Source: Mycolicibacterium smegmatis (GTDB lineage: Bacteria > Actinomycetota > Actinomycetes > Mycobacteriales > Mycobacteriaceae). Taken from it: a DNA stretch of 32,000 nt. Location: positions 6,450,001 through 6,482,000 of the forward strand of contig NZ_LN831039.1 in assembly GCF_001457595.1 (NCBI RefSeq), written 5' to 3'. Shown one piece after another: positions 1,411 to 8,541 of the stretch. A model generated the notes under the pieces. It was not told the DNA's origin, searched no databases, and saw nothing but the letters and a program-made list of their open reading frames with translations. The translations under genes and the position numbers were made by a program. Within the stretch, counting starts at the first letter, position 1; each line of letters begins with the position of its first letter.

Positions 1411-1725
1411 TCAGTCCGTTCCTCCGACGGAACTGTCGAGGGCTCCGCCGGCTTCGTGATCCCGTCGTTCGTAGACATCGGCGGCAGTTCGCAGCCTGTC
1501 CCTGAGGCCTGTCAGATCGGTGCGTAACCGTTCTGCCTGAGAATGAGCGATGTCCACGAACTTGGCGAAACCTGGGGTGCCGGCTTCTTTCCACGCCGTC
1601 GTCTGGCCCGAGATGCCGTCAGCCATCGCCGTACGGCTGGACGAGGCCTCATGCGCAACCACGTCCATCTGGTCGGCCGAGCGGCGCACCTCGGCCGGCG
1701 TCACGTGTAGCTCAGGGTTCGTCAC
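1411..1725 (-). CDS. Small (104 aa) EspC/DUF2580-like helical protein with C-terminal YxxxD motif; putative type VII secretion target/partner
   Basis: In-frame GTG at 1725-1723 is preceded by GGGGAGGA and overlaps the upstream gene's TGA (GTGA, 1722-1725). Sequence VTNPELHVTPAEV...LRTAADVYERRDHEAGG resembles the layout of M. tuberculosis EspC (LTVQPERL...AAKIYSEADEA), including Y-x-x-x-D (codons 1459-1473). The 193-aa ORF in the track (to 1992) would overlap the lipoprotein gene and its extension is Arg/Gly-rich junk. Confidence 0.6.
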   Translation of the reverse strand: MTNPELHVTPAEVRRSADQMDVVAHEASSSRTAMADGISGQTTAWKEAGTPGFAKFVDIAHSQAERLRTDLTGLRDRLRTAADVYERRDHEAGGALDSSVGGTD

Positions 1726-2351
1726 GATCCTCCCCTGCCCGTCGTTCTGGTGGGAACAGGTCCAGTTGTGGTCGGCAAGGGCGACGGCGCCGGTGTAGCG
1801 GTGGTGGCCGAACGGCGGCACTCGATTCTTCCGGCAATAACCGACGCTTCCGCAGTCCCGAATACAAGTGTCCGCCCGTCGTCGCTGCTGAACCGCACGT
1901 CGTGATTCCGACTGGCGTTCGCCATCACCGTGACGGTTCCCAGACCGGACTCCCTGGTCAGCCTCTCCACTACCGGGAATGCCGCTGCCCACTCGTCATC
2001 GGTGAGTGGGGCATCTGAGATGAGATTCTGTGTAGCCAGCGAAACGCCGCGGAGGCCACTTTCTTTCTGTACACATCCTGATCGAGATTCTTCACGGTTC
2101 CACCGCCAGGGTTGAGTCGCCGGTGCAAGCCGGGAAACTTCGTCACGCACCCGCTCCATCAGGTCCAACATTTCAATCCTGGAGTGCTCAATATCAGGGA
2201 GATCGGTCAAGTTGGCCACAGGTACATCCTCATTCAGAATCGGCGAGTCATATCCGCCATCGCCGTTACCACCACCGCATGCTGCGGCCACCATCAGGAC
2301 CACACACGCCATTGCGCCTCGGATCCGTCTTGACGGGATTTGATTCGTCAA
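1722..2351 (-). CDS. Putative secreted lipoprotein (209 aa)
   Basis: TTG start at 2351-2349 overlaps the hydrolase TGA (TTGA). N-terminus has a basic n-region (PSRRIRG, twin-Arg), a hydrophobic core (MACVVLMVAAA), then Cys25 followed by GGG (lipobox-like A-A-A-C, Cys codon 2277-2279). Thr/Pro-rich C-terminal tail. The next in-frame ATG (M14) would leave no charged n-region, which favours the TTG. Confidence 0.65.
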   Translation of the reverse strand: MTNQIPSRRIRGAMACVVLMVAAACGGGNGDGGYDSPILNEDVPVANLTDLPDIEHSRIEMLDLMERVRDEVSRLAPATQPWRWNREESRSGCVQKESGLRGVSLATQNLISDAPLTDDEWAAAFPVVERLTRESGLGTVTVMANASRNHDVRFSSDDGRTLVFGTAEASVIAGRIECRRSATTATPAPSPLPTTTGPVPTRTTGRGGS

Positions 2352-4171
2352 CGCACCAACCTGTCCTCTCCATTCGGGCCCGGGACATCTGCGAGCCCTG
2401 CGGCGATCACCGCCAGGTTGTACGCAGGAGTTCTCAACACCTTCTCACCGCTTGGTAGTTCGACCGGACGCGGGTAATCCGCGTGAGCAACGGCCCCCTC
2501 GCGTGATACTCCATCCGGCGTCACTGCAGCATCCGCCGACAACTGTTCCAACGGGAGCGTCAAGGGGTTGGGCCCGAACTGGCCAAGGTCCCCTGCTGAC
2601 GGCAGCGGTACGCCATTCCACGTGGGATCACCAGAAATCGGGTCGCCTGGCGCTGACATCACAAATGCACGGCCGTCGGCGAGAAACATGTCTGACTCAT
2701 CTCGGATCGGTGCCATAACCTCGATCGGCACCCCTCGCGGAGAGATGTAGGTCTCGGTCGAGTCAGTGTGGCCGAGACCAGGCGAGCCGTAGAAAGCGGC
2801 ATCGTCGACGACGCCGGTTTCGCCGAGCTCATAGAGGGCCTGGGCTGTGGTCAACGAACCATACGAATGACCGAAAGCCGACAAGTGGACGTCTGAGCCG
2901 TGTTCGTTCGTTGCGTTGATTCCACGATAGAAGTCGGCGAGATCCGGCGCAGCCTCGTTCGCTCTACGCTCGAAGCCGGCTTCCGCGACCGAAATATCGG
3001 TTCCGGGCGGCTCGTAGCCAAGCCACGCAATTGTGGCGACCTGCTCACCACTCCGTCCGGCCCGGTCGAGTTGCGTCTGAGCCTCCTGACGTAGGGCATC
3101 GGCTTCACTCACCATGCCACCCAGGCTTTCGGGCCTTGTACCGACGCCAGGTGTCGTCACGGTGACGTGTTCAGCCGTGTCCGGATTGCCTACGGCTATG
3201 GCAGCTCGCGGCTCGCGATCCTCCGGGAACTCCAGCAGCATCAGATACTTGTTCGGGTCATACTTCCCATCAACGGACAGGGCATCTTTCATCGCTTTGG
3301 CATCGTCGAGACGCCCTTGCCGCTCGAACATCATCTTGTTGTACGCGGCGTTCAACTGTGCACCGTTCCATCCTGGATGCTCCCGCCGGAACTCATCTCG
3401 GCTCGGCATCGCGTCGACGGCGGCTTGCGCCTCAGCGAGTTCCCGATCCAACGCTGCCTTGTTCACTTCACTGCGCACCGCCACGGGGACCCCATCCCGA
3501 TTTCCGATCCAGTCCGGGTGCTCGGAAATGACCTTGGCCTGTTCCTCTTCGGAAAGTGCGTTCCACCAGGCATTCACATTCTCGGGGCTTACGCCTTCAC
3601 CTTCCGGCGGGTAGGGAGCGGACAATCCTGACTGTTCGCGGCCCATCTCTTGCGCCGAAGCGAAATCGGAGGAGCCGCGCGCCGTTACGTCACCATTTTC
3701 GATGTGGCCGAACACCTCTGCACAGTCGGCATCGATGTCCTCTGCCTGATGGATCAGTGCCTTTGCGCGGGCTTCGATGTTCTCCGCGATGTGCTTCAGT
3801 TGTTCACGGTCGTCCGGCGACCCGCCGATCGTGACATCGCCGTTGTCCGCGAGGTGGAGCAACCCGCCCTGCGCGGCGACGTCTGCGCGGACGGCCTCGA
3901 GTTGGGATTGAAGCTTCGCGACTGCCGCCGCTGTTTCATCGGCGAGTTGAGCGACAGCTCCGATCACCGCCGCGTCGTCCAAGACGTTCGCCTTGGCCGT
4001 CCCGATACGCCCCCTGGCTGCGTCTGCGGCAGGAGAGTCCCAGCCCGGCAGCCTGGAGATCAACTCCAAGTCGGTCGCGACGCCCTCGATCGTCCTGAGC
4101 TCGTCACGCAACTCGAAAGCGATGGACTGCAATGCGCCCACGTTCCACGAGTCGATGTCGCTCAGTTGCAC
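2348..4171 (-). CDS. 607-aa fusion protein: N-terminal WXG-like helical hairpin plus C-terminal alpha/beta hydrolase (DUF1023/Abhydrolase_8-like)
   Basis: GTG at 4171-4169 preceded by AGGGGGA. N-terminal ~100 aa is alanine-rich helix / turn (LPGWDSPAADAA, W44 codon 4040-4042) / helix. Segment WWNALSEEEQAKVISEHPDWIGNRDGVPVAVRSEVNKAAL is followed by a hydrolase core with nucleophile elbow G-H-S-Y-G (2858-2872, Ser436 codon 2864-2866), then YGSPG and a C-terminal H-A-D-Y. This pattern is what I recall for the actinobacterial DUF1023 family. Confidence 0.8.
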   Translation of the reverse strand: MQLSDIDSWNVGALQSIAFELRDELRTIEGVATDLELISRLPGWDSPAADAARGRIGTAKANVLDDAAVIGAVAQLADETAAAVAKLQSQLEAVRADVAAQGGLLHLADNGDVTIGGSPDDREQLKHIAENIEARAKALIHQAEDIDADCAEVFGHIENGDVTARGSSDFASAQEMGREQSGLSAPYPPEGEGVSPENVNAWWNALSEEEQAKVISEHPDWIGNRDGVPVAVRSEVNKAALDRELAEAQAAVDAMPSRDEFRREHPGWNGAQLNAAYNKMMFERQGRLDDAKAMKDALSVDGKYDPNKYLMLLEFPEDREPRAAIAVGNPDTAEHVTVTTPGVGTRPESLGGMVSEADALRQEAQTQLDRAGRSGEQVATIAWLGYEPPGTDISVAEAGFERRANEAAPDLADFYRGINATNEHGSDVHLSAFGHSYGSLTTAQALYELGETGVVDDAAFYGSPGLGHTDSTETYISPRGVPIEVMAPIRDESDMFLADGRAFVMSAPGDPISGDPTWNGVPLPSAGDLGQFGPNPLTLPLEQLSADAAVTPDGVSREGAVAHADYPRPVELPSGEKVLRTPAYNLAVIAAGLADVPGPNGEDRLVR

Positions 4172-4294
4172 CCGATCCCCCTGGCATCACGTCAGGAAAT
4201 ATCTTATCCGCGCGTTTGCTGGCCCCATGCACCAAGTTCGCCGCCAGGTGAAGCTGCTCGAAACCGCGCCGAGAGGGACGAAAATGTCGTCCAC

Positions 4295-4314
4295 AAACGC
4301 TGTGAACAGCATTT
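4295..4314. promoter_or_regulatory. Imperfect palindrome AAACGCTGT-GA-ACAGCATTT in the divergent hydrolase/dprE1 intergenic region
   Basis: 9-nt arms match 8/9 with a 2-nt spacer. It ends 39 nt upstream of the dprE1 ATG (4353). No cognate regulator is identified. Confidence 0.25.
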
Positions 4315-4352
4315 ACGTCGATTTCGGCGGGTAAGACGACAGGTTGCGGGCA

Positions 4353-5823: not shown

Positions 5824-6285
5824 GTGAACCACACGACCGACTTCGAGCAGCTGCTTCGAAGTGCCGGCATGCGGGTGACCCGTCCCCGCATCGCGGTGTT
5901 GCGGGCCGTGTACGCACACCCGCACGCCGATACCGACACGGTCATCCGCGCGGTGCGCGAGGACCTGCCCGAGGTGTCGCACCAGGCGGTCTACGACTCG
6001 CTGCACGCGCTGGATGCGGCGCGCCTGGTGCGCCGCATCCAGCCGTCAGGTTCGGTGGCGCGCTACGAATCTCGCGTCGGCGACAACCATCACCACGTGG
6101 TCTGCCGGACGTGCGGCGACATCGCCGACGTGGACTGCGCGGTCGGCGATGCCCCGTGCCTGGCCGCGTCAGACCACCACGGCTACGCCATCGACGAGGC
6201 CGAGGTCATCTACTGGGGCACGTGCCCGGCGTGCGCGCAGGACCCCCACCGTGCGCAAGCACCAACTTCCCGATCACACCCGTGA
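5824..6285 (+). CDS. furA: Fur-family redox regulator FurA
   Basis: GTG start. Winged-helix N-terminus (RVTRPRIAVLRAV). HHHHVVC-RTCG and C-PAC metal-site motifs (CxxC...CxxC). Position immediately upstream of katG. Confidence 0.93.
   Translation: MNHTTDFEQLLRSAGMRVTRPRIAVLRAVYAHPHADTDTVIRAVREDLPEVSHQAVYDSLHALDAARLVRRIQPSGSVARYESRVGDNHHHVVCRTCGDIADVDCAVGDAPCLAASDHHGYAIDEAEVIYWGTCPACAQDPHRAQAPTSRSHP

Positions 6286-8541
<2,256 letters not shown>

Follow-up and report, generated by a model that had tools for sequence, protein, structure and literature searches.

Three genes on the minus strand of Mycolicibacterium smegmatis, at positions 1411-4171 of a 32,000-nucleotide stretch of DNA (NZ_LN831039.1, positions 6,450,001-6,482,000; hereafter the window), encode an α/β-hydrolase with a helical N-terminal head (gene 1), an LppA-family lipoprotein (gene 2) and a small helical protein (gene 3). 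Comparison with related loci suggests that this trio serves as a substrate module, remote from the machinery genes, for a mycobacterial ESX (type VII) secretion system and follows the plan of the Esx-associated toxin loci; for this reading, with its mechanism included, we estimate a probability of about 60%. An initial annotation, made from the letters of the DNA, had already described the hydrolase, its partner and the lipoprotein as an ESX-type module, and the sequence comparison supports that description. The kind of system is already known, because two papers of 2026 describe such systems (Benedict et al., Nat Commun 2026, PMC13444075; PMC13491425). The remark in the initial annotation that no functional description exists is therefore still true of this trio, but no longer of the class to which it would belong.

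Judged by gene content and neighbourhood in other genomes, the trio is a conserved module, with related trios recurring in dozens of genomes, beyond what chance would give. One genome per species was scanned, which gave at least 571 stretches with relatives of the hydrolase; the best 80 of these loci were analysed, together with two loci that hold one further relative (82 loci). The initial annotation had expected the three genes to co-occur elsewhere, and their co-occurrence is strong. Using iterated hidden Markov models built from the window proteins, an LppA-like gene was found next to the hydrolase gene in 76 of the 80 loci, often with a 4-nucleotide overlap. It generally lies 3′ of the hydrolase gene, in Gordonia 5′ of it, and the hydrolase-lipoprotein pair is kept in Mycolicibacterium, Mycobacterium, Nocardia, Rhodococcus, Gordonia, Segniliparus, Kibdelosporangium and Amycolatopsis. 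A helical partner of about 100 residues, drawn from several divergent families, adjoins the hydrolase in about 75 of the 82 loci.

The position of this partner changes from clade to clade. Proteins of the gene 3 type were detected at 54 places. In the Mycolicibacterium clade their gene comes after that of the lipoprotein; in several Mycobacterium genomes, M. shimoidei among them, it immediately precedes the hydrolase gene in the same orientation, and in Nocardia and Rhodococcus it is upstream and divergent. At 22 of the loci without a match to gene 3, an open reading frame (ORF) of about 100 residues from other families ends at or overlaps the start of the hydrolase gene, and nearly all of these alternative partners have [YF]xxx[DE] some 20 residues before their C-terminal end (for example YDDAD, FQQRD and YSTNE). 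In the metagenomic protein P0101, a partner of the Rhodococcus type, the head and the hydrolase are fused in one chain, and an LppA gene follows it; this fusion may be a sequencing error, because it is known from one contig.

The head of gene 1 is the part that would serve as the targeting domain for type VII secretion. The AlphaFold2 (AF2) model of gene 1, built with 61 homologues, has a predicted local distance difference test (pLDDT) score of 92.6 and a predicted template modelling (pTM) score of 0.88, and places the helical head and further helices (a linker) ahead of the α/β-hydrolase core. Within the head, a helix at residues 11-39 leads through a turn at W44 into a second helix at 47-99, followed by a β-hairpin at 105-115 and a third helix at 119-158. 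The tryptophan lies within L-P-G-W-D-S-P (codon at 4042-4040), and in alignments of distant relatives it is conserved throughout or almost throughout, the motif being WxG in most relatives and WxS in the Mycolicibacterium clade. When 21 orthologous heads were scanned individually against Pfam, WXG100 was matched by six of them (best E 3.5e-6), EspA_EspE by four, WXG100_2 and EspB_PPE by three each, and T7SS_signal and LXG by one each; the families matched by at least three heads are all helical domains of type VII substrates. Among full-length relatives, P0104 matched WXG100 (E 1.8e-5), and P0110 matched both PPE (E 2e-5) and WXG100. The WXG-type fold that the initial annotation had foreseen for the head is thus borne out by profiles of the orthologues, but not by a match of the window's own head. 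Its predicted fold and these family-level profiles, rather than its own sequence alone, support the head of gene 1 as WXG100-like.

The remainder of gene 1 contains the enzyme. Motifs, Pfam and the AF2 model all confirmed the architecture given in the initial annotation, namely a helical head with W44 joined to an α/β-hydrolase with a GHSYG elbow. The match to Pfam Abhydrolase_8 (DUF1023) scores 136 bits against a cut-off of 20.5 (E 1.1e-39), and the codon of S436, in GHSYGS, lies at 2866-2864. In alignments that include distant relatives, GHSYGS and D510 are invariant and H563 is near-invariant; D510 and H563, which lie downstream of the elbow, are likely the triad partners of S436. A Foldseek search against the PDB returned only generic esterases, dienelactone hydrolases and PETase-like folds (best E 3e-5), with no close solved relative, so that the fold does not tell what the substrate is. 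A single-sequence PDB search had no match for gene 1 or gene 2, NCBIfam had none for these two genes, and PHROGs had none for any of the three. In the papers found, the assignment of DUF1023 as a hydrolase is computational only, and they report neither biochemical work on the family nor a measured catalytic activity.

Gene 3 gave clear profile matches in its own right. It scores 89.7 bits against T7SS_ESX_EspC (PF10824; cut-off 23.5, E 1.9e-25) and 35.3 bits against WXG100 (PF06013; cut-off 27.3, E 1.5e-8), in agreement with the initial view of an EspC-like small helical protein with a YxxxD motif. The motif itself, Y85-E-R-R-D89 at 1473-1459, is present, but the protein does not end in it as had been stated, since it lies 15 residues short of the C-terminus. 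In the alignment of the family, all 55 sequences have W45 and 52 of them have D89. A PDB sequence search with gene 3 returned weak EsxB matches only. The protein sequences of genes 1 and 3 lack a signal peptide.

Gene 2 was initially annotated as a lipoprotein, and it proved to be one of LppA type, both by its Pfam LppA match (101 bits, cut-off 26.4, E 7.5e-29) and by its lipobox cysteine C25 (codon at 2279-2277). Across the alignment of its family C25, C93, C178 and W121 are invariant, and the two extra invariant cysteines fit a disulfide formed outside the cytoplasm. Of 87 lipoprotein copies, 76 carry a lipobox, and an N-terminal hydrophobic anchor is found in most of the others. The profile of gene 2 homologues matches the M. 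tuberculosis family member LppA in the PDB (2v7s; E 1.2e-8), and no function is attached to LppA or to this structure in the literature found. From the neighbourhood of the gene, we propose that gene 2 is a periplasm-facing inhibitor or immunity protein.

The features of the locus are collected in the table. On re-reading of the sequence, the coordinates of the three chained minus-strand ORFs and both 4-nucleotide overlaps were exact, and Shine-Dalgarno-like purine-rich runs were found immediately 5′ of the GTG starts of gene 1 (AGGGGGA at 4182-4176) and gene 3 (GGGGAGGA). The trio genes are coupled by their overlaps, in an operon divergent from dprE1, and here the ORF coordinates and sequence uphold the initial annotation. 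Public annotation uses other starts, giving 196 residues for gene 2 and 136 for gene 3. We favour the shorter form of gene 3 because homologue alignments support that start; the 136-residue form would overlap the end of gene 2. For gene 2, the public start is an internal ATG that drops the charged n-region of the signal peptide, and the TTG start is favoured because homologues usually carry an arginine-rich n-region before the lipobox. The product of gene 1 is identical to ABK69977.1/AFP42639.1 of M. smegmatis mc2 155 (exact sequence match), and should correspond to MSMEG_6381, dprE1 being MSMEG_6382. Among the cluster accessions listed for gene 2, none was seen of the ABK series, i.e., of the original mc2 155 record.

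Table. Features of the trio and its upstream region; positions are those of the window.
Feature	Position	Strand	Description and basis
Gene 1	2348..4171	-	607 aa, GTG start; ORF list, Pfam and AF2
Gene 2	1722..2351	-	209 aa, TTG start; ORF list and Pfam LppA
Gene 3	1411..1725	-	104 aa, GTG start, within a longer ORF (1411-1992)
TTGA overlap	2348..2351	-	Gene 2 start with gene 1 stop; reverse complement read
GTGA overlap	1722..1725	-	Gene 3 start with gene 2 stop; reverse complement read
Head domain of gene 1	3677..4171	-	Residues 1-165; AF2 secondary structure; proposed type VII targeting domain
Abhydrolase_8 profile match in gene 1	2756..3211	-	Residues 321-472; Pfam; nucleophile elbow G434-H-S436-Y-G-S
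Divergent intergenic region, gene 1/dprE1	4172..4343	.	Presumed operon promoter

In the mechanism that we propose, the gene 1 protein, which lacks a signal peptide, would be synthesised in the cytoplasm, and its W44 helix-turn-helix head would pair with the gene 3 protein, the source of the YxxxD motif. Head and gene 3 protein together would form a composite signal recognised by an EccC ATPase, and the complex would be exported, most likely via ESX-4, which analogy favours, and otherwise via ESX-1. Once outside the cytoplasm, the Ser436-Asp510-His563 hydrolase would cleave an ester-linked component of the envelope of a target cell, the leading guess for the substrate being a lipid or mycolyl ester of a neighbouring mycobacterium. 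The gene 2 protein would leave the cytoplasm independently, through the Sec and lipoprotein pathway, and be attached to the outer side of the membrane, where it would bind and block the hydrolase and so protect the producer and its kin. We infer every one of these steps, i.e., pairing, export, the ESX system used, substrate cleavage and inhibition.

An arrangement of this sort has been described for EatA of M. abscessus, a GH183 arabinanase with a helical head, which depends on ESX-4, is toxic to mycobacteria, and is encoded with two small Tap partners (TapA1 and TapA2) and a lipoprotein inhibitor, EatI (Benedict et al., Nat Commun 2026, PMC13444075). A survey of Tap-associated loci found the α/β-hydrolase to be the commonest payload, and toxins that act extracellularly to be paired with lipoprotein or membrane immunities (PMC13444075). 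The analogy with toxin, partner and immunity modules that was drawn in the initial annotation is now published for mycobacteria (PMC13444075). The trio has those features of an Eat/Tap/immunity locus that can be read from sequence, namely a helical head, an adjoining small helical gene and an adjoining lipoprotein of fitting location. Like the EatA locus, it combines an elongated helical N-terminal domain on the effector with a small helical accessory protein and a lipoprotein, away from an esx locus, and we propose that gene 3 is a Tap-like targeting partner. Unlike the arabinanase EatA, the payload of the trio is an Abhydrolase_8 serine hydrolase, and whereas the EatA locus has two partners, placed upstream, the trio has one, placed after the lipoprotein in the window's clade. 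Gene 2 belongs to the LppA family, and the fold of EatI is called newly characterised (PMC13444075). ESX-4 dependence, toxicity and inhibition have been demonstrated for EatA, whereas for the trio they are proposals.

The second of these papers lists, as operon 4 of the SigM regulon of M. abscessus, a small Esp-like protein (Mab_0251), an α/β-hydrolase with WXG and YxxxD/E motifs (Mab_0252) and a lipoprotein named 'LppV' (Mab_0253), which are SigM-induced and belong to the same regulon as the ESX-4 substrates EsxU/EsxT; AlphaFold 3 predicts a helix bundle from which the hydrolase projects (PMC13491425). The window trio resembles this operon in gene layout, combining a small Esp-like protein, an α/β-hydrolase and a lipoprotein, and the two are probably homologous. 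No M. tuberculosis or M. abscessus protein was among the 120 top homologues listed in two homologue searches. For MSMEG_6379-6381, Rv2078/2079/2080 and Rv2796c-2798c, no functional work was found in the literature; the initial annotation had presumed similar gene sizes in the Rv2078-Rv2079-lppJ region of M. tuberculosis.

More distant parallels share the plan and not the parts. The LXG/Lap and TslA/TlaA/TilA modules of Firmicutes likewise pair a helical targeting domain with small helical partners and encode a cognate immunity. TslA, a lipase, acts outside the cytoplasm and has a membrane-located immunity. Unlike the trio, these modules use the T7SSb secretion system, the domain order of TslA is reversed, and neither payload nor immunity has a sequence relationship to gene 1 or gene 2. 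Membership of the trio in the LXG family was considered and rejected: LXG had no match in gene 1 and matched 1 of the 21 orthologous heads at E 0.045, and the trio would work like an LXG module only by analogy. CpnT/TNT of M. tuberculosis, with EsxE-EsxF and IFT, is again an ESX-dependent toxin encoded together with its immunity factor and small Esx partners at a distance from the esx locus; it differs in that TNT is a NAD+ glycohydrolase that acts in the host cytosol, that its immunity factor is cytoplasmic and that its carrier domain is another one.

The pattern of divergence around the trio also bears on its role. The trio stands beside dprE1, at the same place, in at least 12 Mycolicibacterium genomes, and mean identity to the window over 12 syntenic loci falls from 87% for dprE2 and 82% for dprE1 to 71% for gene 1, 62% for gene 3 and 51% for gene 2. 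By these alignments the three genes change more quickly than the housekeeping genes around them, gene 2 most of all. Lipoprotein genes are also multiplied: in Mycobacterium sp. MYCO198283 (L014, 7809-10350) four tandem LppA-like genes with 40-88% mutual identity lie between the hydrolase and the small partner, and loci L033 and L038 each have two LppA-like copies in tandem. An extra LppA-like copy 3′ of the trio in M. frederiksbergense AC80 (L001, 8709-9251) is split over two ORFs and may be a decaying orphan.

The module is also found elsewhere in chromosomes, away from dprE1, and on a plasmid. The copy on pTY66_01 (L084, 7052-9718) consists of a 99-residue protein, a 596-residue hydrolase and a 174-residue hypothetical protein, with a 4-nucleotide overlap; its small gene is annotated by NCBI as a 'type VII secretion target', and the module is flanked by PIN/DUF2191 and RES/Xre toxin-antitoxin pairs. 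A search with the head alone against 1.8 billion representative proteins returned mostly the same hydrolase family, and in addition P0441, in which a related head is joined to DUF2599 and followed by a 90-residue gene (L088, 118-1379), and P0414, in which head and linker precede an unrelated, unassigned C-terminal region. This hints that the head may be a modular carrier domain. A plasmid copy, tandem lipoproteins, other payloads on related heads and fast divergence of the lipoprotein are more typical of conflict systems.

Several observations weigh against the reading of the trio as an ESX substrate module. In the window's clade the head has WxS and gene 3 has WxxxG, neither being WxG. The head of gene 1 has no Pfam match on its own, nor do the first 320 residues, and hhalign gave no significant match between the profiles of the head family and the gene 3 family (probability 1.6%), although it set the two tryptophans in register. 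Generic hydrolases are the only fold matches of gene 1, and in a model of the fusion P0101 the partner segment is a low-confidence helical hairpin (pLDDT 55-69). Two relatives have incomplete surroundings, P0110 being without a lipoprotein, and P0369 (L087, 8001-10474) having a Hydro_N_hd head and an LppA gene after it and no adjoining partner gene called. The exact SigM −35 element GGAACCG is absent from 4172-4343, in a scan for exact matches; in this the trio is unlike Mab_0251-0253, which have a SigM promoter, and co-regulation with ESX-4 is therefore unsupported here. Finally, the fixed position at the dprE1 side looks vertically inherited and could point to a housekeeping role in the envelope and not to warfare.

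This last point leads to an alternative that we consider rather unlikely, in which the ESX-exported hydrolase would act on the producer's own cell wall or mycomembrane, for instance in growth, conjugal DNA transfer or stress, with the lipoprotein as regulator or docking partner instead of an immunity against neighbours. The trio does adjoin the cluster for arabinogalactan and mycolate biosynthesis, its position by dprE1 is kept in at least 12 genomes, and envelope remodelling is one option that the authors consider for the SigM-regulon hydrolases (PMC13491425). Against it stand the copies on a plasmid and elsewhere in the chromosome, the tandem arrays of a lipoprotein that diverges fastest of the three (51% identity), and the related heads that bear other payloads. 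A fast-evolving, multiplied and dedicated inhibitor would be unexpected for a lipase or esterase secreted, like PE/PPE-linked lipases, against amoebae or host membranes, from which the lipoprotein would protect only the producer's own membrane. LipY is an ESX-secreted lipase of pathogenic mycobacteria, and the heads of some relatives of gene 1 score as PPE or EspB_PPE, which would suit such a eukaryote-directed enzyme; yet it is among soil saprophytes, Mycolicibacterium, Nocardia, Rhodococcus and Streptomyces for example, that the family is most often found, and we regard this explanation as improbable.

It is more improbable still that the trio has no link to ESX secretion at all, the hydrolase being cytosolic or exported otherwise and the EspC-like gene a neighbour with a separate function. 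Such an account would fit the missing profile match of the window's own head and the missing machinery genes nearby, but it is weakened by the adjoining Y/FxxxD/E partner, kept through changes of order and family, by the natural fusion in P0101 and by the NCBI label on the plasmid-borne small gene. It is weakened, too, by the constant presence of a lipoprotein located outside the cytoplasm next to a hydrolase that lacks a signal peptide. The ESX substrate module remains the reading that we prefer.

Because M. smegmatis mc2 155 is the standard laboratory mycobacterium, the trio offers a clean single-partner example for asking what the α/β-hydrolases, the commonest predicted class of ESX-associated toxins, cleave, which ESX system exports them and whether LppA lipoproteins inhibit Abhydrolase_8 effectors. 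A broader generalisation, which we put forward tentatively and hold to be doubtful, is that Abhydrolase_8 enzymes and LppA lipoproteins form a widespread enzyme-inhibitor pair, the enzyme being an ESX-delivered esterase directed at the mycomembrane or another ester-linked envelope component of neighbouring Mycobacteriales and the LppA-type protein its cognate immunity. This would assign a function to M. tuberculosis LppA (2v7s) and make M. smegmatis a tractable model of contact-dependent antagonism among mycobacteria; it might extend to LppB, LppJ and LppV, as possible members of the family, and to the uncharacterised hydrolases Rv2079 and Rv2797c, which presumably lie beside them. An enzyme that damages the mycobacterial envelope from outside, together with its natural inhibitor, would point to envelope targets for drug discovery.

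The operon promoter presumably lies in the intergenic region between gene 1 and dprE1, where a consensus scan found no sigma-70-like promoter. The GGAACCG element occurs 14 times in the whole window against 6.5 expected from shuffles; three copies are inside the coding sequence of the trio and none in the upstream region, and the excess is probably an effect of codon composition. Terminator-like sites were not more frequent than in shuffled sequence, and inside the operon there was none above that expectation.

The rest of the window is a cell-wall cluster with dprE1, furA, katG, dprE2, aftA, embC, embA, embB, pks13 and fadD32. Among the window genes there is no ecc or mycP gene, confirming the initial statement that ESX machinery is absent from it. 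The furA and katG genes (5824-8541) lie between dprE1 and dprE2, and do so too in M. frederiksbergense AC80 (L001, 3967-1753); in the other 11 syntenic Mycolicibacterium loci, unlike these two, dprE2 follows directly after dprE1. P0369 is the name in our set for an α/β-hydrolase that NCBI records for several Mycobacteriaceae. Small genes of the YbaB/EbfC family adjoin the module in Nocardia (L081, 9255-9590, minus strand) and beside P0101 (L083, 3191-3589), and this family is termed 'EspL-like' in the table of the M. abscessus SigM regulon (PMC13491425). Nocardia sp. JMUB6875 also carries three MspA-type porin genes downstream of the module, at a distance of up to 10 kb (L081, 13169-14568 and 21267-21773).

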